DNA of 64,000 bases, from the NCBI RefSeq assembly GCF_037042905.1, contig NC_087245.1:7876001-7940000 (forward strand), given 5' to 3'. This stretch comes from Lytechinus pictus. Taxonomy: Eukaryota. The notes under the pieces were generated by a model. It was not told the origin of the DNA. It did no database searches and worked only from the letters and a program-made list of their open reading frames with translations. Made by a program: the position numbers and the translations under genes. This document shows positions 1,811-54,878 of this stretch, piece after piece; the first letter of the stretch is position 1; each line of letters begins with the position of its first letter.

Positions 1811-3762
<1,952 letters not shown>

Positions 3763-7771: not shown

Positions 7772-8385
7772 TCTTCTCTACAACATCGTGATGATGGCGG
7801 AGGCAATCGTAAACTCGTGGAGGACACATGACTTACCGAAATAGACGCACTATTATCCAAAGTTGATTACGATGATATTCACCTTCTCTACAACATCGAA
7901 GTGATGGCGGAGGTAATCGTAAACTCTTAGAGGACGCATGACCTACCGAAATAGACGCACTATTATCCAAAGTTGATTACGATGATATTCACATTCTCTA
8001 CAATATCGTGATGGCGGAGGTAATCGTAAACTCTTAGAGGACACATGACCCACCGAAATAGACGCACTATTATCCAAAGATGATTACGATGATATTCACC
8101 TTCTCTATAACATCGTAGTGATGGCGGAGGTAATCGTTAACTCTTAGAGGACGCATGACCTACAGAAATAGACGCACTACAAGCTGAAGTTGTTTCTGAT
8201 GATATTCACCTTCTCTACAACATCGTGGTGATGGTGGAGGCAATCTTAAACTCTTAGAGGACGCATGACCTACGTCACCTACCGAAATAGACGCACTATT
8301 ATCCAAAGTTGTTTACGATGCTATTCAACTTCTCTACAACATCGTGATGATGGCGGAGGTAATCCCAAACTCTTAGAAGACGCAT
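7772..8385. repeat. About 118-bp tandem repeat, about 5 copies
   Basis: Repeated TTCTCTACAACATCG...ATGGCGGAGG...CCGAAATAGACGCACTA. Confidence 0.9.
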
Positions 8386-8477
8386 AGTTGTAAACATTAC
8401 CGCGCATGTCAGCGTGTTCAACTAAATTGTATTTGCCTCCGCTTAAGATCAAAACATATCATCATCTTGTTGTTTTT

Positions 8478-10087
8478 GTCTCGCCTGCGTAGCGAGACAT
8501 AGGTACATGTATCACTATTTCCGGCGTCGGCGTCGTTGTCGTCAACAATTGTGTTGTACACCCAATAACTTTCTATAGCTTCGAGGTGGGATCACCAAAT
8601 TCATACCAGAGGTCCATCTCCTGAAGGCACAGGTCAAGTTTGAATATGAGTCAAATTGGAATAAGGTCAAAGGTCAATGAACTTTCCATGACTGGCACTG
8701 TACTGTGTTGTACACATAATAACTTTGTACACCCAATAACTTTCTATAGCTTCGATGTGGGATCACCAAATTCATAACAGAGGTCCATCTCCTGAAGGCA
8801 CAGGTCAAGTTCGAATATGAGTCAAATTGGAATAAGGTCAAAGGTCAATGAACTTTCCATGACTGGCACTGTGCTGTGTTGTACACATAATAACTTTCTA
8901 TATCTTCGAGGTGGGATCACCAAATTCATACCAGAGGTCCATCTACTGAAGGCACAGGTCAAGTTCGAGTATGAGTCGAATTTGAATAAGGTCAAAGGTC
9001 AATGAACTTTCCATGACTGGCACTGTGCTGTGTTGTACACATAATAACTTTGTACACCCAATAACTTTCTATAGCTTCGAGGTGGGATCACCAAATTCAT
9101 AACAGAGGTCCATCTCCTGAAGGCACAGGTCAAGTTCGAATATGAGTCAAATTGGAATAAGGTCAAAGGTCAAAGGTCAATGAACTTTCCATGACTGGCA
9201 CTGTGCTGTGTTGTACACATAATAACTTTCTATATCTTCGAGGTGGGATCACCAAATTCACACTAGAGGTCCATCTCCTGAAGGCACAGGTCAAGTTCGA
9301 GTATGAGTCGAATTTGAATAAGGTCAAAGGTCAATGAACTTTCCATGACTGGCACTGTGCTGTGTTGTACACATAATAACTTTCTATATCTTCGAGGTGG
9401 GATCACCAAATTCATACCAGAGGTCCATCTCATGAAGGCACAGGTCAAGTTTGAATATGAGTCGAATTTGAATAAGGTCAAAGGTCAAAGGTCAATGAAC
9501 TTTCCATGACTGGCACTGTGCTGTGTTGTACACACAATAACTTTCTATAGCTTCGAGGTGAGATCGCCAAATTCATAACAGACGTCCATCTCTAGAAGGT
9601 ACAGGTCAAGTTCGAATATGAGTCGAATTTGAATAAGGTCAAAGGTCAATGAACTATCGAGGTGAGATCGCCAAATTCATAACAGAGGTCCATCTCTTGA
9701 AGGTGCAGGCCAAGTTCAAATGTGAGCCGAATTTGATTAAGGTCAAAGGTCAATGAACTTTCCATGACTGGCACTGTGCTTTGTTGTACACATAATAACT
9801 TTTTATATCTTCGAGGTAGGATTGCCAAATTCAAACAAGAGGTCCATCTCTTGAAGGTGCAGGTCAAGTTCGAATGTGAGTTGAATTTGATTAAGGTCAA
9901 AGGTCAATGAACTTTCCATGACTGGCACTGCTGTGTTGTACACACAATAACTTTCTATAGCTTCGAGGTGGGATCGCCAAACTCGTAACAGAGGTCCATC
10001 TAAGTCATATAGCATACATGTAGTTTTGACATGCAGTCTCTTCATGACTGCAATATGCAGGCGAGACAACGCTTGGCGTTTGCCTTG
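8478..10087 (+). mobile_element. Helentron/HINE-like element with about 9 internal 150-170-bp tandem units
   Basis: subTIR GTCTCGCCTGC...GCAGGCGAGAC, GTC/GGC microsatellite, 3' hairpin AACGCTTGGCGTT, T-run flanks. Confidence 0.75.
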
Positions 10088-10726: not shown

Positions 10727-10873
10727 AGTAACTACAATATGGCTGTTATGAATGTTGGAGCACCAGCAGCTGGCATGAATGCAGCTGTGAGGGCGTTTAT
10801 CAGAACCTCTCTCTTTCATGGATACAGGGTTTATCGTATCAATGATGGATTCGAAGGTCTTATTGCTGATCAG
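10727..10873 (+). CDS. PFK: PFK exon ([49 protein letters not shown])
   Basis: acag| and |gtatg, 147 nt, start of the regulatory half. Confidence 0.96.
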
Positions 10874-12615
10874 GTATGTATGTCATAAGAAATTTGTAAA
10901 TATTAAAGCTATTCATATAGAATATTAAAATAATGTAGTGTCAGCTAATGATTTATCATTAATCAGTTATAGGTACTATTTAAGCAAGAATAATTATTAT
11001 AGTAACATGTATGTTTTAGATACTAAGGAATGCCAATTCTTGTATAAATCAAACTAGGGTGTTTTTTTTTCTTTTCTTCTACTAATTAGAATTTATGAAA
11101 TTATGATTTTGGCATTTTTTTTTTGGCAATTTTTTATGACGGCTTTGCCATTATAGCACCGTTTGTACTTCTCTGACTGTAGTATCTTAATGTGTTAAAT
11201 CGTTAACACATGTTTGGACCACTAAAATATCAATATCCTTTCATTTTTGTGATAGTTTCTTTTTTTTAATGTTCTGTTGGGATCACCGACTGATTGAATG
11301 GATTTCTCCTTTTTGACCTTTATGTTTTTCAGCATAATAGACAAAGGAATTTAAAGAACATTACTGATTTATTTGCTTTAATACTCTTCAATATAAACAA
11401 ATTTTGTTGTCCTGTCTGTAATGTATTTGAGTTGTTTGAAAAGATTTTTTTTTTAATTAACAAAAGTTTTTTAACTGAGGATGAAACCCTTGGAACAAGT
11501 TAGCTTGTGTGAAAACAGAAAAATCAAAGAAACAAATCAGTTCAAGTTTGAGAACAATTAATCATAATAATTTGAATGAAAAATGTGAGAGTTGAGTATT
11601 ATGTGTGGTTAGTTAATGCCAGGAAACTGTTGTTCAGTTTCCCTTTAAAAATTTGATTTCTCAAGACAAGAAGAGCTTTATATCCAGTCCATGTCGACGA
11701 AGAGTCTTATTGTTCAAGTTCTAATGAAATTATGTAGCTAACATATGTTCCTGTAATAATTGTGTTTTGTGTTCAATAATGTTATTGATATTGTTCAGTT
11801 TTATTTTGTTGTCAGTTATTACTCTTTAACACTGTTTCATTGACACAGGTTTTATTGCATCAATTTATTGTGTAAAGTACATATCATATAAAACTTCTAT
11901 GTTTCTACTACTTACTTTGCCTGAATATTATTTGCTTTGAAGCATGGATAAATCTTAAATTACCAGAGGCCTTTAACACAAAGTTTGATAAGTGATCTTA
12001 CAGTTGATTTGTATGCTTTGTTGCACACAATGATCAATGTAATAATGTGTGAAAACCAGCCCTACGATCGAACACTCCATGTAGGCTTTGTGTTGGGTCT
12101 TTGGTAAAAATGAGCAGAAATGAAACATTCAGAAATTGTGTTTTGAAATGAAATCAGGCAATTGTCTTTTCAAGACACAAGATGTGATTATGATCAGCCA
12201 TTACTTTGAACTGTTATTTCCTTGTTATATTTTGTTTTGAATATGATTATTAACTAATAACTTTTGAAAATGATTGAATCTTCTTTTCTGCACTGTGTAC
12301 ATATATATTTAACATCAGGGAGAGGTGAGATATTATCAATAATATGTTTTGATTTTCCCTATACCCTCTGTATGGCTTGCATGTATTGTAATTCACTCCT
12401 GGCCTTTGATTTGCACAAACTTCTTGTCTAGATATAAAATGAGCTAAGTTACCTGAGTGCCATCTGCGAATTTCTCAGATTTTTTTAAAAGCAAAATGAA
12501 TTGAAGATGTAGACAAAATGCAGTCGTACTGTTGAGACTTCAGAAAGCAAATCAAGTTAATTAGGGCATCAGCTATACATCATCTCCAAATGATTTCCTA
12601 TTTGTTGTGAAAATA

Positions 12616-13438: not shown

Positions 13439-15638
13439 TATAATTCTGTGAGTAACATGAAAGTAAATGATTCAAGGTATTCATATTCACTCTATTCAAA
13501 CCTTAGTGCCATGGATGAATAAGGACATTGAGGGGGGGGGGAGTCAAACAGTCATCAAGGGGAATTTCATTGATATATCCTGAATTAAAATCTTCAGAGA
13601 TGTCTACAGGGTTTGTCTGATTTCAGGCCCTAACAACTTCCCTTATCAGGCTTTTCAGCCTTTTCAAACCAGTGAAAAAACTGACACTTAAATTAGGGAT
13701 ATTCAATGTTTTTTTTGTCTTCTCTATCATTCTTTGATGTTGAGTACATGCAAAATATAATACATGTACATATTTTTTATGGCTATGCGGAACACACAAC
13801 ACAATGCTATGTTAATTGTAGATATTTAGACTTTACATGAATGTAAGTAAATATCTGTTGCACAATCATGTTTTAATAGCCAAACAAAACTTGGTTGATT
13901 TTACTTTGGTGGAATTGTCTTCCTTTTGTGATTTTATGTCTAGGTTTTAGTGCTGTGCTTTATTAGAATCTTGGTTTGTTTTGGTGTTGAGTTTGAGTTT
14001 AGTTTGGAAAATCACTGTCTTTAAAAGAATGCAATCCCACATGTTTCACAATGCGTTATTCCACTTTGTGTTTTACTTGAAGAGTCATGGGGGAATGGAA
14101 ATAAGTTTTATTTCGATTGTTTTATCACCTGATCATTTAAGGCATTTACCATTTTATATTGAATTACCTCATATAGTTCATGCTGTAGTTTAAAAAAAAT
14201 CCATACTTTTTAACATTGATTTCCATTATATGTATTTATTGACTATTTCCTGGAGATTGTTGGCCGATTGCTTTTTTTAATTTCTGCTTTTTTAAATATT
14301 TATTTCGCTTATTCTTTTTTTATTTTCATTTATTTCAATCAATTTTGAGACATAATGTCAGAGTGCAAGTCTTTCCAATATATAGGAGACATTTCAGAAA
14401 GCAAAAGATCAAATCAACAGCCTCATCTATTTTATAAAGTCTTACAGGTTTTGATTTGTAATGGATATATGTACATACTATTGGGCTGCTTCACAAAGGA
14501 TTAAGTTGGACTTGAAGTTGCACTTATATTCCAAATTGCTCCACATCGCTGCATTGGTCCAGATTACCCAAGCTGATAATACATTGCATGTGTAATGTGA
14601 TCCCAATACTATTATTAACAGTAAAACTTGTTTATTAAAGATATTAAAAAAGACACTATCATTCCTGCATGATTGGATACCCCACATTGCAAAAGTATAT
14701 TCACTATGTAATAATTCAGTTTGAAAGAACCCATTACCTGTTCTATCATTCAATTAAAGTATAAAAAAAAACTGTAGAAGTAGTCAAACCTATGTCAGTT
14801 TATTACTTAAGTCATGTATGTCCAGTTTTCTCATTATACAGTGTGTCCAATAAAAAAATTAATCCATTTTCAAAAAGATATATCCTAATCATCAAATATG
14901 TTTTGATTTGAGACCTAATACTAAACAAATTGCTCATTCGTGGCATGTTAGATGTACAAACAATAAATACGGAGGCTTGTCAGAAACGTTTTGCACAGAA
15001 ACTCACATGTAGATTGTAATGCATGTGAGGCTGTACTTTGACATATTTTTTAGTGCAATGTCATAAAGTTACGAAAAATTTAGTACATTTTTGCATAAAC
15101 TTTTCTTGTCGACTGTCGTATATAAAGAAGAAAAACGTGAATGAAAGATCATAAATCATTCAACTATGTTGTAGAAAATAACTGAGAACCCTTGTTTCCT
15201 TCTTATTCTGGGACACATGGTATTGATATAATATGAATATGAACAAGCAATGAACTTAATATTTTGTCTCATGGTTATGGCAGAAAGGGTAGAAAAGGGG
15301 CTATGTGGACTTTATAATTTCACAACTCATGATTATAGCAATGCCAGGCCTAATTAAAGTACATAGGCAAATGGTAAAACCTTAAACTCATCTGAATTCG
15401 CCTAGCATTGACTTATCATGAACCTTAATCAGTTGATACGGTCCAGAATAATGGTAACATAAAGAACTACATACAATAAGTAGAGCAATGAATATCCTTG
15501 TAAAAAAAAAAAGTAAAATGGAATAGCTAACATTGTTTCGCTGCCAATGGTGGGACACCTGTTGAATATCTTTGTAAGAGACGTCTTTCTGATCGAGGAG
15601 GTTATATATGATTTACATGTTATGATCTCTTTATACAG

Positions 15639-15709
15639 GTTCAGTTATCAGGTTGGATGGATGTTAGTGATTGGGTTCGACAAGGAGGTTCTATACTAGG
15701 AACTAATAG
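15639..15709 (+). CDS. PFK: PFK exon (VQLSGWMDVSDWVRQGGSILGTNR)
   Basis: tacag| and |gtatgt, 71 nt, W..V..W...GGS.LGT.R motif. Confidence 0.95.
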
Positions 15710-17821
15710 GTATGTAAGGCATTACAATGAACATTGTACCAATGGGTCATTCCACATTGAAAACAAACTCACTGAAGTATAATCAATTGAGGTCAGTGAT
15801 TGGGTTTGACAAGGAGGTTCTATACTAGGAACTAACATGTATATAAGACAATACAATGAACATTATTCCACATTGAAAACAAACTCATTGAAGTATAATC
15901 AATTGAGGTCAGTGATTGGGTTCGACAAGGAGGTTCTATACTAGGAACTAACATGTATATAAGACAATACAATGAACATTATTCCACATTGAAAACAAAC
16001 TCACTGAAGTATAATCAATTGAGGTCAGTGATTGGGTTTGACAAGGAGGTTCTATCCTAGGAACTAACATGTATATAAGACAATACAATGAACATTATTC
16101 CACATTGAAAACAAACTCACTGAAGTATAATCAATTGAGGTCAGTGATTGGGTTTGACAAGGAGGTTCTATACTAGGAACTAACATGTATATAAGACAAT
16201 ACAATGAACATTATTCCACATTGAAAACAAACTCACTGAAGTATAATCAATTGAGGTCGGTGATTGGGTTCGACAAGGAGGTTCTATACTAGGAACTAAC
16301 ATGTATATAAGACAATACAATGAACATTATTCCACATTGAAAACAAACTCACTGAAGTATAATCAATTGAGGTCAGTGATTGGGTTCGACGAGCGGGTTC
16401 TATACTAGGAACTAACATGTATATAAGACAATACAATGAACATTATTCCACATTGAAAACAAACTCACTGAAGTATAATCAATTGAGGTCAGTGATTGGG
16501 TTCGACAAGGAGGTTCTATACTAGGAACTAACATGTATAAGACAATACAATGAACATTATTCCACATTGAAAACAAACTCACTGAAGTATAATCAATTGA
16601 GGTCGGTGATTGGGTTCGACAAGGAGGTTCTATACTAGGAACTAACATGTATATAAGACAATACAATGAACATTATTCCACATTGAAAACAAACTCACTG
16701 AAGTATAATCAATTGAGGTCAGTGATTGGGTTCGACAAGGAGGTTCTATACTAGGAACTAACATGTATATAAGACAATACAATGAACATTATTCCACATT
16801 GAAAACAAACTCACTGAAGTATAATCAATTGAGGTCAGTGATTGGGTTCGACGAGCGGGTTCTATACTAGGAACTAACATGTATATAAGACAATACAATG
16901 AACATTATTCCACATTGAAAACAAACTCACTGAAGTATAATCAATTGAGGTCAGTGATTGGGTTCGACAAGGAGGTTCTATACTAGGAACTAACATGTAT
17001 AAGACAATACAATGAACATTATTCCACATTGAAAACAAACTCACTGAAGTATAATCAATTGAGGTCGGTGATTGGGTTCGACAAGGAGGTTCTATACTAG
17101 GAACTAACATGTATATAAGACAATACAATGAACATTATTCCACATTGAAAACAAACTCACTGAAGTATAATCAATTGAGGTCAGTGATTGGGTTCGACGA
17201 GCGGGTTCTATACTAGGAACTAACATGTATATAAGACAATACAATGAACATTATTCCACATTGAAAACAAACTCACTGAAGTATAATCAATTGAGGTCAG
17301 TGATTGGGTTCGACAAGGAGGTTCTATACTAGGAACTAACATGTATAAGACAATACAATGAACATTATTCCACATTGAAAACAAACTCACTGAAGTATAA
17401 TCAATTGAGGTCGGTGATTGGGTTCGACAAGGAGGTTCTATACTAGGAACTAACATGTATATAAGACAATACAATGAACATTATTCCACATTGAAAACAA
17501 ACTCACTGAAGTATAATCAATTGAGGTCAGTGATTGGGTTCGACAAGGAGGTTCTATACTAGGAACTAACATGTATATAAGACAATACAATGAACATTAT
17601 TCCACATTGAAAACAAACTCACTGAAGTATAATCAATTGAGGTCAGTGATTGGGTTCGACGAGCGGGTTCTATACTAGGAACTAACATGTATATAAGACA
17701 ATACAATGAACATTATTCCACATTGAAAACAAACTCACTGAAGTATAATCAATTGAGGTCAGTGATTGGGTTCAACGAGCGGGTTCTATACTAGGAAGTA
17801 ACAGACATTACAATGAACATT
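15710..17821 (+). repeat. 116-bp tandem array (18 units) derived from the PFK exon 3' end and intron start
   Basis: GAGGTC anchors at 15789, 15905, 16021 ... 17755, spaced 116 or 114 bp. Confidence 0.97.
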
Positions 17822-18637
17822 GCCTGAATACAGGTAGGCAGTTTGGGCATTTCATGATACATGCCTCCAAATCACACTTATTGTGATGTCACTCATATGA
17901 GTTTGCTTGACTACATTGTACTCAATAAAATGCATTAATCACAATGTTTCTCTTTCAAAGTGATTAGATACCTCACTACAGTTTTCAGAGAATAATTTTC
18001 ATGATATTGCATCAATATTTGCTCCACATTTTTCAAAGACTGCTCCACAGAACTCTTTTGTGCAGTAGGTATTTACACAGGACTGTACAGAATTTTGTTA
18101 AGAGCCTTTCTTTGCTGCAAAAATATTCCCTGTTTTCCGTGGGGTCTAACTGCAAGTTATTGTTATTCAATGCTTGGGATTTATCCTTGAATTCAATATT
18201 TTTTCAATTTCTTAATTCTTACTCATGGCATGTGTTATATTGTATCTTTAAAAAATAATTGATTGACCCTGAAGCCTCTCATGAAAATGAACATTAGTGG
18301 CGAATGTACATGTATTATGAAACTCACAAATTCCAGATTGAAAAGAAATCAATGTCAGGTACAAATTTTGATAGTTCAAGACAGAAAAATGTTATGACTA
18401 GCTGAACAATGCATCGATGCCGAGTTTCTTAATTTTGGTCAAAATGGGTCTCATTGCAATCTCATTAGTTCAAAAATGTTCTCCTCTGTTCATTAATTGT
18501 TTTGTATTTAATGCTACTCTAACTGTAATACTTTCAAAATTCCTATTCTTTGATGTTTAAGAATACTTTGCCTACAGCTATTTATTTGTTATTTTGTGAT
18601 TAAAATCCAAATCTTTGTTCTTAATCAACAATATTAG

Positions 18638-18725
18638 GACAACTCCAAAGAAGAACATGGCTGTTGTTGCAGAGAAGATCAAGAAGTATAATATTAATGC
18701 TCTTCTGTTGGTTGGTGGCTTTGAG
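18638..18725 (+). CDS. PFK: PFK exon (TTPKKNMAVVAEKIKKYNINALLLVGGFE)
   Basis: ttag| and |gtaag, 88 nt. Confidence 0.95.
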
Positions 18726-31675: not shown

Positions 31676-32865
31676 GTCTCGCCTGCATAGCAGAGCGAGA
31701 CTATAGGCGCCGCTTTTCTGACGGCGGCGTCGTCAACATTGAAATCTTAACCAAGGTTAAGTTTTTGAAATGTCATCATAACTTAGAAAGTCTATGGACC
31801 TAGTTCATGAAACTTGGACCTAAGTGTAATCAAGTATTACTGAACATCCTTACTGAGTTTCAGGTCACATGACCAAGGTCAAAGGTCATTTAGGGTCAAT
31901 GAACTTAGACCATGTTGGGGGAATCAATATCAAAATCTTAACCAAGGTTAAGTTTTTGAAATGTTGGCATAACTTCAAAATTATATGGACCTAGTTCATA
32001 AAACTCAGACATAAGGGTAATAGTGTATCACTGAAGATTCTGCGTGAGTTTCAGGTCACATGATTAAGGTCAAAGGTCACTTAGGGTCAACGAACTTTGG
32101 CTATGTTGGGGTTATTTTGGGAATTGTCATAACTTTAAAAGTTTATGGATCTTGGTCATGAAGCTTGGACATAAGAGCAACCATGTATCCCTGAATATCA
32201 TGTGCGAGTTTCAGGTCACATGACCAAGGTCAAAGGTCACTTAGGGTCGACAAACTTTGTCCATGTTGGGGTTATTTGAGGAATTGTCATCATAACTTCG
32301 AAATCTTATGAATCTAATTTATGAAACTTGGACAAAAGAGCAATCAAGTACCCTTGAACATCCTGTGCGAGTTTCAGGTCACATGACCAAGGTCAAAGGT
32401 CATTTAGGGTCAACAAACTTTGGTAATATCGGGGGTAATTGTGGAACTGTCATCATAACTTTAGAAGTTTATGGATCTAGTTGAAGAAACTTGGACATAA
32501 GAGCAGCAATGTATCCCTGAATACCCTGTGCCCATTTCAGGAACATGGCCAAGATCAAAGGTCATTTAAAGGTCAATGAACTCTGGCCGTGTTGGGAGTA
32601 TGTTTTGAATTAGCATCATAACTTAGAAAGTTTATGGATCTAGCTCATGAAACATTGACATAAGGGTAATCAAGTATGAATGATTGTTTTGTGCATGTCT
32701 TAGGTCACATGATCAAAGGTCATTTTGGTTCAAAGGACATAATATTTTATTATCATATCAGTGTTATCTTCTGTGAATAATTATTCATTAGCTGTTTTCA
32801 AAGGCAGCTTTGCTGCTATATCGAATTGCGTAATGCAGGCAAGATTGCCAGAGGCGTTCCACTTG
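31676..32865 (+). mobile_element. Helentron/HINE-like element (family B) with about 175-180-bp tandem units
   Basis: GTCTCGCCTGCATAGCAGAGCGAGAC start, GGC repeat, ends ATGCAGGC...CCAGAGGCGTTCCACTTG, T-run flanks. Confidence 0.75.
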
Positions 32866-37405: not shown

Positions 37406-40400
37406 TTAAAGATAAACGAGTGGAACACTGACTAAAAACATAATTGTTAATATGCCATTTATGTGATAAATGCTGTATTTTGAAATTTAAAATGGCCGCC
37501 ATAGCCCCTATATTTATTATGTACAATGCGAATGGAGAAACTAATTTTCACACGAGTAAGAAACATAAAATGCATGTAATTGTGATCTACGAGTAAAATA
37601 TTGTCTGACAACATGTTTTATAGCAAGACATACCATTTCTTTTGTCATGCATGAGATAAATGCTGTATTATGAAATTCAAAATGGCCCCTATAGGCCCTA
37701 ACAGTATTATCCACAATGTGGATGGGAACATATAATTATGTAAGAATTTGGATTTGCTTGACTAGGACATCCATAATCCTGTTGTATGAGTAAAACGTTA
37801 TTTGAAAACACATTTTAAAAAATAAATTATAGCATTTCTTCTGCCATATAGGGGATAAATACTGTATTTTGACATTCAAAATAACCTCTACAAGCCCTAA
37901 CTAAATTATGTAACATACGAACAGGGAAACTAATTTTCACAAGAGTGAGAATCATAAAATGCATATAACTGTGATGTACGAGTAAAAATATTGTCTTAAA
38001 CATTATTTCTAACTAAATACATCACATATTGGTCGTGGAGGTAATAAATGCTGTATACTTTGAAATCCAAAATGGCTGCCATAGGTCCTTAAAGTATTGT
38101 GTACATCGTAACATGGGACATACAATTTTGACAGAATTTGGCTTTGCTTGATTCTAAATATTTCATATAATTGTGATGTAAGGGTTAAAGCCATGGTTTC
38201 TAACGAGATATATCATAATATTGTGTAATTAAGATGATAAATGCTGCATTTTTAAATTGAAAATGGCCACCATAGGCACTTATCGTATAATATACAATTT
38301 GAGTGGAGACAAATAATGTTCACAAAAAGGGCATATGGCAGCCATTTTGAATGTTGAAATACAGTATTTATCACCTAAATTACATAAGATATGATATATT
38401 TTGTTATAAATCATGTTTTCAGACAATATTTCACTCATACATCACCATTTGGCCAAGCAAAGCCAAATTCGGTTGAAATAATTTGTTCCCATTCAAATTG
38501 TGCGTAATACCGTAAGGGCCTGTAGCGGCCATTTTGACTTTAAAATAACAGTATGTATCACCTAACTGGCAGAATAAATGATATATCTTAATAGAAATTA
38601 TGCTTTCAGACAATATTTTACTCATAGATCACTATTACATGCATTTATGGTGCTCACTCCTGTGAATATTGGTTTCCCACTTTGCAATGTACATAATACA
38701 GTTAATGTCTATGGCGGCCATTTTGAAAGTCAAAATACAGTATTTAACACAAACTTGAAACCTAAATGATATATTTCGTTAGAAAATACGTATTTAGACA
38801 GTATCCAATTAATCTATCACATATATATGCATTTTAGTGCTCACTCTTGTGATTTCTTTTCTCCTCTTTCTCATTGTGCATAATACTTTTAGGGCCTTTG
38901 GCAGCCATTTTGAATATCAAAATACAACATTCATCACAAACATGGCATAATAATAATATATTTCGTTAACAACTATGTTTTTAGTCAGTATTCCACTCGT
39001 TTAATCTTCATAATAAGCATTTTAGTGATCACTCTTGTGTGAATTTTTTGGCCCCCATTGCCATTGTACGCAATACTGTTTGGGCCAGTGGCGGCTATTT
39101 TAGATATCAAAATACAGCAATGTTCCCATATATGACATAATAAATGATATATCTCATTAGTAATGATGAATTGCATGTATTACTTCGTTCATACATCGCG
39201 ATTTTTTTGCAGTTTAGTGCTCATTTTTGTGAAAATTAGTTTTCCCTATTCATATTGTACATAATAGAGTATACAAGGGCCCATGGCGGCCATTTTGAAT
39301 ATCAGCAAAATAAATATTTTGTCAAAAATTATTTTTACTGAGAGTATTTCACTCCTGCCACACTATTTCATGCATTTCATAGCCAATGTGCGGACAATTT
39401 TATAATTTTCATGGGTAATTTGCATATTTTGGCGGCCATATTGGATTTTGCCAATTTGCGGAAAATGCTCAAGGTTACACGAGTGGCATCATTCAGATTC
39501 GTAATCAGCACCCTCGAATTGACAAGAAACCATCAAAAAATATTGTATATATAAAAAAACAAGGTTATGCCTCTTCTATCCTGGACTATGAGACTATAGG
39601 CGCCGCTTTTCCGACGGCGGCGGCGGCGTCAACACCAAATCTTAACCTGAGGTTAAGTTTTTGAAATGACAGCATAACTTAGAAAGTATATGGACCTAGT
39701 TCATGAAACTTGGCCATAAGGTTAATCAAGTATTACTGAACATCCTGCCTGAGTTTCATGTCACATGACCAAGGTCAAAGGTCATTTAGGGTCAATGAAC
39801 TTAGACCATGTTGGGGGAATCAACATCAAAATCTTAACCTAAGGTTAAGTTTTTGAAATGTCATCATAACTTAGAAAATATATGGACCTAGTTCATGAAA
39901 CTTATACATAAGGTTAATCAAGTATCACTGAACATCCTGCATGAGTTTCACGTCACATGACCAAGGTCAAAGGTCATTTAGGGTCAATGAACTTTGGCCG
40001 AATTGGGGGTATCTGTTGAATTACCATCATAACTTTGAAAGTTTATGGATCTGATTCATGAAACTTGGACATAATAGTAATCAAGTATTACTGAACATCC
40101 TGTGCAAGTTTCAGGTCACATGATCAAGGTCAAAGGTCATTTAGGGTCAATGAACTTTGGCCAAATTGGGGTATTTGTTGAATTACAGCCATAAATTTGA
40201 AAGTGTGTTGGTCTAGTTCATAAAACTTGGACATAATAGTAATCAAGTATCACTGAACATCCTGTGCGAGTTTCAGGTCACATGATCAAGGTCAAAGGTC
40301 ATGTAAGGTCAAAGAACTTTGGCCACGTTGGGGGTATTTGTTGAATTGCCATCATATCTCTATAAGTGTATTGGTCTAGTTCATAAAACGTGGAAATAAG

Positions 40401-43400
40401 AGTAACCAAGTTTTCAAAATCAGCACTGCTGCTATATTGAATCGCGTGATGCAGGTGAGACGGCCAGAGGCATTCCACTTGTTTTTAATATCATTGCATT
40501 GATAATATAATTCTGAGCAATTTGATACCTTGGTCAACCTACGACCATTAATAACGAAATTAACACCCGTTTAAGTTTGCAGCACGTGTGCGCGCGAGCT
40601 CTCACTATAGGCCATATATGGGCAAAAACATGCCTATAGAAAATCCGCTGTAGCTCTTCAGAACGAATGGGGACCCCCCATTTTTTTTTCATATTTTGAT
40701 AGAGTATGAATTAGAGATATAATTTCATGTCTCATTTGACCCTCAATTATATTAAGACGTCATCAAAATGGCGTCAGAAGTCAAAATATCCATTTTGCTT
40801 GTTATGACGTTATAATAATTATGCAAATTTGGCTCTAACTCCGTGAATATTGGTCAATTTTTGCCCAATTTTGGATTAGTATGGTGTAGCTTAGGTCTTA
40901 CTCTTTCTGAGTTATTGCCTTTATTTTTCATTTTAATGACCGGATCATCCTGAAAAATTGCAAATAATAAAGGCATGTCATTTTGCGTGTAATCTCTATG
41001 GGACATGACTTTTTCTCAAAAATAGATTCTACATTCCTCTATTTCGTGAGCCATATCTCCACTTTTTCATGTCAGATTTCTCCGAGCTTTTAGTATGTTG
41101 TAGCTGAGATTCTAAGCTTTCACAAATGTTCTCTCCATTTTTTGATCAGATGCCGGGATCATGCCCGTTTTTCGCTTGCAAAATTGGATTTGTAATTCTC
41201 AAATTTGCTTACGTGTAATCTCTATGGGAACGTGTAATCTCTATGGGGAATATCGTGGATGAATGGATAACGCACTTGACTTGCGTCTTTGGGGTCCCTG
41301 GTTCGAGTCTTGGGGTGAACACGATGATTTTTTTTCTTTTTTTTTTCTTTTTACCACCTCGTACATGATCCTTTATGACAATTAAAACGTATAAAAGTTA
41401 AAATATGGCAAGATAAAACAAATTATAATTACTTTTTTTTCATATCACATGTATTGTCATACATCAAAGAGACCTTTTTCACAGTGCTTTATCTAGCATC
41501 TTTCACAAGTATTCTATCCATAGTGAACATTCAGTTGTCATGATATTGATCTGCATGAACATGGTGATAGTGATCATGATGGCGAGAATAAGGACAGACC
41601 ACCTAATTCGTCTGTATGACAAATTAAAATCTAGTTATATTTCTTTTGATATCATAAATTCAAGTCAGATTTTCACTTTCACATACACTTTCATGTCATA
41701 GCTTCTACTATATGTATGTTCTTGTTTATCCTTTTCATTTTCCTATTTTGTGTCCAGTTTTGTCTTTCTTTGCATTTTTTTAAAGGTGTACAGCAATATG
41801 TCAGATTGAATTTTGTATATTTAGACAATATGGTTTTTTTTTTCAGTTCATCAAAACAAATGTCCATAATTGTATTAAATATTTATAATTTCACTTATTT
41901 TAAACGTAATAAATTGTGTAATATCAGAGCGGTGTTCAGTTTAGTAGAAAAAAAACACCCAAAAAATACAGCAAGCTACTTAAACAGCCTACCATGTATT
42001 ATTTTTTACTGCACAAATTTATAGTTACATGTTTATGTGAAGACTAATCTTCTGTTGAGAATGCCTCTCCTGAGTTTTGGTTTATCCCCAATTCTAGTTT
42101 AATACAACATTATATGACTTTGTATGTTCTGAACCTCTATGGTAATAAGGTGTTTTAGTGGATGTCATCAGTGATTCTACAAACAAAATTTGGTCAAGAA
42201 TGATCTGAATGAGAAGAACTTTTTGTTTTATTACTATTTTCAAGCATGGAATGGGCTGAAAATGAATATCTTTGTTCGTACCTTTATTAATATTATGCAA
42301 TAATAAATTTTGTAAAATGATGTTCGAAACCTCAAAAAAGGAAAATATAATCACATGTTGATTCCCTCCCAAGGGCGCTAAATATCCTGAAAAGTCAAAT
42401 TTGAATTATCACAAAGAATCAAATAGATGTTTTTTTAATTAATGTTCGCTACACTTGTGTAAGATTTATTTTAAATTGATGTTCAATACACTTATGCAAG
42501 ATAGGAATATTTGATGATACTTCAATATTGTTCCCATTATTAAAAACCTTCACAAAACATTTAGAGTTTCTGTAAAGGAGAATTCTTTCCTTCCATCTAT
42601 ATTTTCATACATTTTTTCATACCTTCCATTCATGTTATGTTTGCATTTGTAACTCCTGTTTATCCAGCTTCCCAATGATCTTGTTTATGATGAAATATTA
42701 CTATTCTAATATTATCTAGCATACATGTATTATGTACACAATGTTTGTACTCATTATATTGTGATAAATGTATGCCCAATTTATTGATTGACCACATGTT
42801 CATTGTGTTTACCATTAAATACCTCATATGTGGAATTTCATTTTATGTAATATTCCCCCCCCCCTCAAAAAAAAAAAATATATGTTGATTTTCATTTTGT
42901 AATGTTTTGCTAGTATATTATGAATTTGAAAGGCTAGATTTATCAGAACCTTAATTGTGATTATATGGTGTGTGTTTATGCAATCAACGATAACCAAAGA
43001 TTAACCAAAGTTAATCTTTTCCATCAATGCTAGAATTACAGGATTAGTAATTCCGTTTGATAACCCTCTTCATTCAAATGATAATCTGCATTCTATTGTT
43101 ACACTTTATGCCATTATTTACCGAGTTTTACATCTGTAAGTTATTGTACCAACACATTTCAAGAGAGAATACATTGACCACATGCATAGTTGACATGAAA
43201 TGGTGATATGTATTATAATCCAATAATTTGCCAAAAAATTTCAGGTGACCAGATATATTTTTAGCCAACATGAGAAATTTTCAATCACTACTACAGATGA
43301 CTAGTTTTATTGACTGGTTATGATTTTGAGATAAAGTTTATCAACTAAAATGATACACATTACTATTTTATAGACCATATAATAAACATTTTGCTCAGTC

Positions 43401-53702: not shown

Positions 53703-54878
53703 TAAAGATTTGTATAGCGCACATATCTGTCGATGACACTCAAGGCGCACAATTAACTACTTATATAAAACAGAAATCAATAAATACATAAAAATGAACA
53801 AACTGAGAAGAAAAAATACACAATCAGTTAAGTTGGTAGTCAAAAAATAAAAAATGGCCTTATCACACAACAGTTAAGGAAATGCTTCCCTCATGAGGTA
53901 AGTCTTCAATTTGCTGTGGAATAGCTCTCTTGACTGGCACGACTTAATGTCCGATGGGATTGAATTCCACAAACGGGGACCAGCAACGGAAAAAGATCTG
54001 TCACCCCAGGACCTTTTCACTCTAACTTGTTGGAGCTGGTGAACATTCCCTGAACGAAGACCGGGTCTACACGATCTCTTCAACTCCAGAAGATCTGATA
54101 GGTACACTGGTGTCTGGTTGGTTTTCAGTTTATAGAGATATGATGGCAATTCAACAAATACCCCCAACGTGGCCAAAGTTCTTTGACCTTACATGACCTT
54201 TGACCTTGATCATGTGACCTGAAACTCGCACAGGATGTTCAGTGATACTTGATTACTATTATGTCCAAGTTTTATGAACTAGACCAACAAACTTTAAAAT
54301 TTATGGCTGTAATTCAACAAATACCCCAATTTGGCCAAAGTTCATTGACCCTGAATGACCTTTGACCTTGATCATGTGACCTGAAACTTGCACAGGATGT
54401 TCAGTAATACTTGATTACTATTATGTCCAAGTTTCATGAATCAGATCCATAAACTTTCAAAGTTATGATGGTAATTCAACAGATACCCCCAATTCGGCCA
54501 AAGTTCATTGACCCTAAATGACCTTTGACCTTGGTCATGTGACGTGAAACTCATGCAGGATGTTCAGTGATACTTGATTAACCTTATGTATAAGTTTCAT
54601 GAACTAGGTCCATATATTTTCTAAGTTATGATGACATTTCAAAAACTTAACCTTAGGTTAAGATTTTGATGTTGATTCCCCCAACATGGTCTAAGTTCAT
54701 TGACCCTAAATGACCTTTGACCTTGGTCATGTGACATGAAACTCAGGCAGGATGTTCAGTAATACTTGATTAACATTATGGCCAAGTTTCATGAACTAGG
54801 TCCATATACTTTCTAAGTTATGCTGTCATTTCAAAAACTTAACCTCAGGTTAAGATTTGGTGTTGACGCCGCCGCCGC

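Follow-up and report, generated by a model that had tools for sequence, protein, structure and literature searches.

The window analysed here is a 64,000-nucleotide stretch of Lytechinus pictus DNA that carries a PFK gene, which we modelled as 15 exons between positions 1030 and 30873, encoding 530 aa with no stop. Compared with the L. pictus PFK XP_054750941.2 (P0122), the model showed 0 mismatches over 530 of 530 residues. Six of the seven exon stretches scanned matched the Pfam PFK family, three of them above the curated cutoff, and the best full-identity homologue of a downstream exon was a Lytechinus PFK. The exon of main concern is 71 nt long and is followed by an intron in which its own end is repeated many times over (Table 1). 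A 6-nt microexon encoding Gly-Glu (12319-12324), with good flanks (CAG/.../GTGAGA, slashes marking splice boundaries), was also observed between the exons ending at 10873 and starting at 15639. It fits the extra letters in the transcript contig of set X10 and is found in the X1 isoforms of both L. variegatus and the Strongylocentrotus cluster (P0003, P0127). This microexon is thus a conserved alternative exon lying just ahead of exon 15639-15709, and among the matches listed there was no literature on it.

Table 1. Features of the PFK locus and of the repeat array (window coordinates).
Feature	Position	Strand	Basis
Upstream constitutive PFK exon, start of C-terminal half	10727..10873	+	Pfam PF00365, E=1.5e-12; exon model
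Real PFK exon, 71 nt; last two bases open the Arg540 codon	15639..15709	+	Exon model; X1 and X10 contigs
Pair of GT sites in the real exon (after 15662, after 15687), in-frame split path giving R540M	15660..15693	+	Enumeration; matches P0125
Source segment (unit 0, 129 bp)	15663..15791	+	47 nt exon + 82 nt intron; unit alignment
Authentic donor TAG/GTATGT	15707..15715	+	Joined in X1 and X10 contigs; U1 duplex -8.3 kcal/mol
First of 18 junction-made donor-like sites	15789..15797	+	U1 duplex -7.4 kcal/mol; predicted 7-bp stem
Units 1-17	15792..17757	+	14 x 116 bp, 3 x 114 bp; cut at junction
First of 17 copied, weakened donors (CAT/GTATAT)	15836..15844	+	U1 duplex -1.9 kcal/mol
Unit 18, terminal, truncated	17758..17822	+	Donor removed by 9-nt deletion
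Next PFK exon	18638..18725	+	Exon model; X1 and X10 contig ends

Tandem Repeats Finder delimited an array at 15749-17803, with a period of 116, 17.8 copies and 97% matches. The repeat unit joins 47 nt from the 3' end of the exon to the 82 nt of intron behind it, of which 13 nt are deleted. Each unit therefore spans the exon-intron boundary, in agreement with a first-pass annotation of this DNA, made from the letters alone, which had derived the array from the PFK exon end and its splice donor. That annotation was right that units combine exon-derived sequence with the start of the intron, although it put the exon share at about 44 nt rather than the 47 nt measured here, and its unit length of 116 bp applies to 14 of the 17 inner units, the remaining three measuring 114 bp. 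The statement that units copy the coding sequence of the exon likewise holds in part: the exact exon peptide VSDWVRQGGSILGT is encoded by only 6 of the 17, and the other units are altered or stop-carrying, the changes being a stop (3/17), S>G (4/17) and QG>RA (4/17). Mean identity among the 14 units of 116 bp was 97.9% (91 pairs). In the unit alignment, units 0 and 18 both differ from the homogenised inner units 1-17. Comparison of units 1-17 further revealed variants recurring at a spacing of 3-4 units from unit 5 onward, which points to recent duplications of whole blocks. A three-base cluster underlying QG>RA in the copy frame (16372-17801) is common to units 6, 10, 13 and 17 and to the terminal unit 18, which suggests exchange of the old terminal copy with younger units.

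No further copies of the unit were found in the 64-kb window, where the best other matches were of 10-15 nt (E of at least 0.37). The window holds other tandem arrays with units of 100-200 bp, at 7773-10001, 31742-32677, 39629-40411 and 54139-54866; units of 163/192 bp turn up in three places and resemble a repeat family dispersed through the genome. On the minus strand at 53874-54188 lies a 104-aa open frame, which gave no Pfam match and resembles the end of a LINE-type ORF2. In the intron that follows exon 1811-1903, long stretches of degenerate (GAT)n run over 1915-2046 and 3336-3762; the first of them opens about 12 nt past the donor of that exon.

Donor sites were scored by their duplex energy with the 5' end of U1, a crude proxy. 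On this scale the real donor of exon 15639-15709 scored -8.3 kcal/mol, and the 14 real PFK donors ranged from -4.3 to -10.7. The copied donor reads CAT/GTATAT in 14 units and CAT/GTATAA in three; at -1.9 kcal/mol it is weaker than all 14 real PFK donors, and -1G and +5G are both absent from 17 of 17 copied donors as against none of the 14 real ones. The first-pass annotation had held that the copied donors were weakened, keeping GT and losing both of these G residues, and that unit 18 had no aligned donor at all; both points were borne out, the second by the deletion listed in Table 1. The joining of one unit to the next makes a second kind of donor-like site that scored far better. These sites, one at each of 18 unit junctions, read GAG/GTCAGT (14) or GAG/GTCGGT (4) and equal or exceed 4 of the 14 real PFK donors at -7.4 kcal/mol, a strength matched by 2.4% of the 1440 intronic GT sites outside the array. 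Plausible donors are thus still present in the array. The same junctions also set an AG ahead of each exon copy, with a pyrimidine fraction of 0.44 that lies under those of all 15 real PFK acceptors (0.56-0.89). In each of five extensions of the exon to downstream donors that we tried, the reading frame met the same premature stop, 67-69 nt into the intron.

Splicing was examined in contigs, which drop rare splice forms; the analysis covered 4 of 24 listed contig sets, aligned over 15000-15930. Two of these, X1 and X10, carry the window's species label (organism A) and come from two studies whose library kind is unrecorded or guessed. Each contributed one contig over exon 15639-15709, running into the exon at 18638 with 0 other letters. 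Since both organism-A contigs that cover the exon (2 of 2) connect 15709 with 18638, the authentic donor is the site used in the main form. In X1 record 1 (15000-15710) the upstream intron is retained and the array-bearing intron removed, so that introns here can leave out of order. Neither an array-extended nor a split-exon form was present in the organism-A contigs over the exon (n=2, a sample from which rare forms drop out). Use of the units as a mutually exclusive or cassette exon alongside the normal one was also considered and rejected: their acceptors are poor, and they lack the first 24 nt of the exon.

Contigs with a second species label (organism B), one of which differs from the window at 38 of 422 letters in this region, allowed the array to be placed in time. 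In X3 record 13 the exon is followed by 82 intron bases, one copy of the exon end and then the flank of unit 18. This copy includes 40 nt identical to window positions 15697-15736, TAG/GTATGT among them, and its exon-like part is interrupted by short insertions and deletions (10 nt duplicated and a 13-nt gap, the latter deduced from a depth table). It corresponds to unit 18 of the window and ends at the same flank, with its donor intact. As junction and end point are the same in the window and in organism B, both descend from one duplication older than the species split, and the intact donor in the organism B copy implies that the founding duplication had a working donor. A second contig, X2 record 12 (15745-15893), spans a complete inner unit in which both -1 and +5 are G; the differences listed for it fit a unit that keeps the 13 nt absent from the window units and is without a neighbouring stretch. 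Repeat number therefore seems to vary in organism B, where a one-copy contig (X3) stands against one with an extra full unit (X2). For the earlier suggestion that the array is a VNTR, this offers weak support as regards copy-number variation, in organism B only. Polarised by organism B, the amplified unit of the window shows four substitutions of its own besides the 13-nt deletion, and the proposed descent of all 17 amplified units from one weakened unit was upheld.

The same comparison brought out a sign that the end of a working exon and its copy in the intron have exchanged sequence. At two linked sites, 15707 (the synonymous position of an Asn codon) and 15719, the window has T and G in the exon and C and A in its units, whereas organism B shows C and A in the exon and T and G in the terminal copy of X3 (one contig). 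Under a simple model, parallel change at both sites without exchange has a probability of roughly 0.0004-0.001. This one contig suggests that exon end and copy exchanged sequence at least once, and the least demanding history would combine an old allelic polymorphism with conversion from exon to copy. The array had been put forward as a gene-conversion donor for the exon; exchange as such gains some support from the swapped sites, which do not show it running from copy to exon.

Taken together, we read the array as a 'mirage' minisatellite that arose as a by-product of local duplication and was tolerated, with a probability of about 0.83, and it is most likely neutral. Before the species separated, a segment made up of 47 nt from the exon end and 27 nt from the intron start was copied to a place 82 nt past the donor, the donor remaining intact, as the two species bear out. 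Full-length units, of about 129 bp, would then have arisen as the exon end and its copy slipped or exchanged unequally. One such unit in the lineage of the window would have lost 13 bp and acquired four substitutions, of which two lie in the donor, before being amplified recently to 17, the latest amplification probably proceeding in blocks of 3-4 units; at least one exchange between exon end and copy may have accompanied this history. The real donor, which two contigs show joined to the next exon, would prevail as the first donor after the real acceptor, by exon definition or by 5'-first selection, and the copies would have no good acceptor ahead of them. Because extension to any downstream donor meets the stop, stray products would be truncated and probably degraded. 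Weakness of the copied donors would be helpful and not required. We also examined whether copies are enriched at the junctions of PFK and rejected this: local copies were found at 4 of 31 PFK junctions (three of them matches of 18-26 nt) versus 19 of 150 random intronic points, and only this junction bears an array. With local repeats so common at intronic points, a single array needs no special cause.

An unlikely alternative is that so many copies were tolerated only because the donor of the amplified unit had been crippled first. The uniform lack of -1G and +5G in the copied donors is what such a filter would leave, and the donor takes two of the four substitutions specific to the amplified unit (P about 0.018 for at least two in seven donor sites, a post hoc figure). 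Together with the loss of the unit 18 donor by a separate deletion, these substitutions may be hints of mild selection against intact copies. The organism B contigs, however, carry intact donors at both the terminal copy and a complete inner unit, and the window itself tolerates 18 junction donors at -7.4 kcal/mol. A predicted 7-bp stem gives a weak hint that the latter might be masked in a hairpin, with opening energies of 5.4-9.4 kcal/mol versus 3.0 for the real donor; against this, the real PFK donors span 2.3-7.9 kcal/mol and the fold around the junction donors was no better than that of shuffled sequences (z +0.4 to +0.8). In man, moreover, F7, LMNB2 and PDGF bear repeated donors of which the first alone is used, according to PMC1557585. 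In view of the intact copy, the inner unit with both G residues and the strong junction sites, the claim that the array was tolerated because its founder donor was crippled is largely unsupported. A crippled donor is, as far as these sequences indicate, no precondition for the duplication to persist.

Also improbable in our view is the idea that an intron is being gained, such that a share of transcripts uses a GT inside the exon, re-enters at the AG of a unit, takes that unit as the second half of the exon and leaves by its copied donor to the exon at 18638, yielding a full-length PFK with Met540. In its favour, among six clustered Lytechinus proteins, an older L. pictus RefSeq isoform X2 (P0125; XP_054750951.1, XP_054750961.1) differs from isoform X1 by R540M alone. 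We enumerated GT-AG paths of the same length that run from the real exon into a unit and exit by the copied donor, and the P0125 protein arose exactly by two routes, one leaving after 15662 via 6 units and the other after 15687 via 13 units, so that on enumeration the duplicated AG-GT motifs do permit an in-frame new intron. The path also fits the hypothetical model drawn in Fig. 7 of PMC3087553. The residue itself is well conserved, Arg540 being kept in 125 of 129 aligned PFKs (the others are two gaps, one Ser and the Met of P0125) and aligning with Arg471 of human muscle PFK (PFKM). We take this position to be the fructose-2,6-bisphosphate (sugar-bisphosphate activator) site in the regulatory half; the literature searched yielded no paper naming the ligand of human PFKM Arg471. 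If such splicing were true, a recent satellite would have given rise to a glycolytic isoform with altered allostery; the array would then be a direct case of the mirage route to intron gain and would touch the control of the main glycolytic step.

Every splice site that this path needs is poor, however, the internal donors scoring -2.3 and -4.2 kcal/mol and the copied donor -1.9, with a low-pyrimidine GAG acceptor between them, and both organism-A contigs contain the normal exon. P0125 is known from nr only, without a contig, and the later record XP_054750941.2 carries no isoform label, from which the R540M model appears to have been dropped. A search for short proteins with the Met form (P0125 residues 505-575 against proteins of 30-461 aa) gave 15 candidates, none significant. 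In view of the poor sites, the normal exon in both contigs and the lack of an isoform label in the later record, and raw reads aside, we read the R540M model as an annotation artefact. A simple route to it would be a read with an AAC codon, synonymous and as found in organism B, which aligns with one mismatch either to the exon or through a unit. Alleles whose exon end was converted by a unit could also give a Met540 protein.

We give equally little credence to the array being a regulatory VNTR, in which junction donors divert transcripts to a stop-carrying form and array length tunes the level of PFK. The 18 reasonably strong donor-like sites, the stop in all extensions tried and the apparent variation in copy number among organism B contigs are what it would call for, and a human precedent exists in the ABCA7 intronic VNTR, which is reported to affect splicing (PMC5954066). 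Against it, the unit differs between the two species and is not conserved, the array is unremarkable among many other local repeats, and no contig shows the extended form, a weak point given that contigs drop rare forms. That the array was created or inflated by mis-assembly is very improbable: the units are 98% identical and none of the four aligned contig sets has an organism-A contig over 15736-15930, but the variants follow an ordered block pattern, unit 18 stands apart from the others, the organism B contigs share both junction and end point with the window, and the R540M model implies a RefSeq assembly with CAT/GT units, perhaps the same assembly as the window.

The tolerated by-product thus finds its closest counterparts in repeats already described. 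Amphioxus 'mirage' minisatellites have been reported in Adh3, the globin genes BflGb6 and BflGb9, troponin C and PGBD5; according to these reports, splicing is apparently undisturbed, length is variable, evolution is concerted except in the boundary units, and a model of intron gain is put forward (PMC3087553; PMC3902484). The PFK array fits this class, being built of head-to-tail units that span the gene's own exon-intron boundary. It shares with the amphioxus repeats a unit length within 10-160 bp, the retention of normal splicing and a distinct boundary unit beside homogenised inner units, and it resembles BflGb9 in lying at the 3' boundary of an exon. It is unlike them in being found in an echinoderm and in having 18 copies compared with 3-6 in BflGb6. 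The literature searched, outside which most subscription journals fall, yielded no mirage case in echinoderms.

Human genes provide a second set of comparisons. According to PMC1557585, VNTRs at exon-intron boundaries occur in F7 intron 7 (37 bp x 5-9), LMNB2 (100 bp x 10-15) and PDGF intron 4 (81 bp x 16-18), and further ones in CBS and IFI 6-16, where proximal pseudo-sites are used too; in F7 the downstream donors are identical to the real one and yet silent. As in F7, LMNB2 and PDGF, the first monomer at PFK spans the 3' end of the exon, the donor is repeated downstream and the first donor is the one used. Unlike F7, in which the donors are identical and the units take in 4 exon bases, the PFK copies contain 47 exon bases, their donors are degraded and an extra donor-like site arises at each junction; unlike CBS and 6-16, the PFK contigs show no use of proximal copies. 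The array is therefore an ordinary mirage repeat, of a type known from lancelets and humans.

A third comparison is with intron gain through duplicated AG-GT segments, as described in a review (PMC3443670) and in a report of a potato case (PMC4974935). The PFK duplication resembles these in allowing, on paper, a seamless in-frame new intron. It differs in that its split path is only predicted, alters a conserved Arg and relies on poor splice sites, and, with the R540M model read as an artefact, it shows how false protein isoforms can enter a reference annotation through mirage arrays. What sets PFK apart from the amphioxus mirages is, finally, that all of its amplified donors are weakened and that a related species displays the two-copy state from which the array was founded. 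There, a single copy with an intact donor stands beside the expanded state of the window, which argues that crippling of the donor is no precondition for arrays of this kind.
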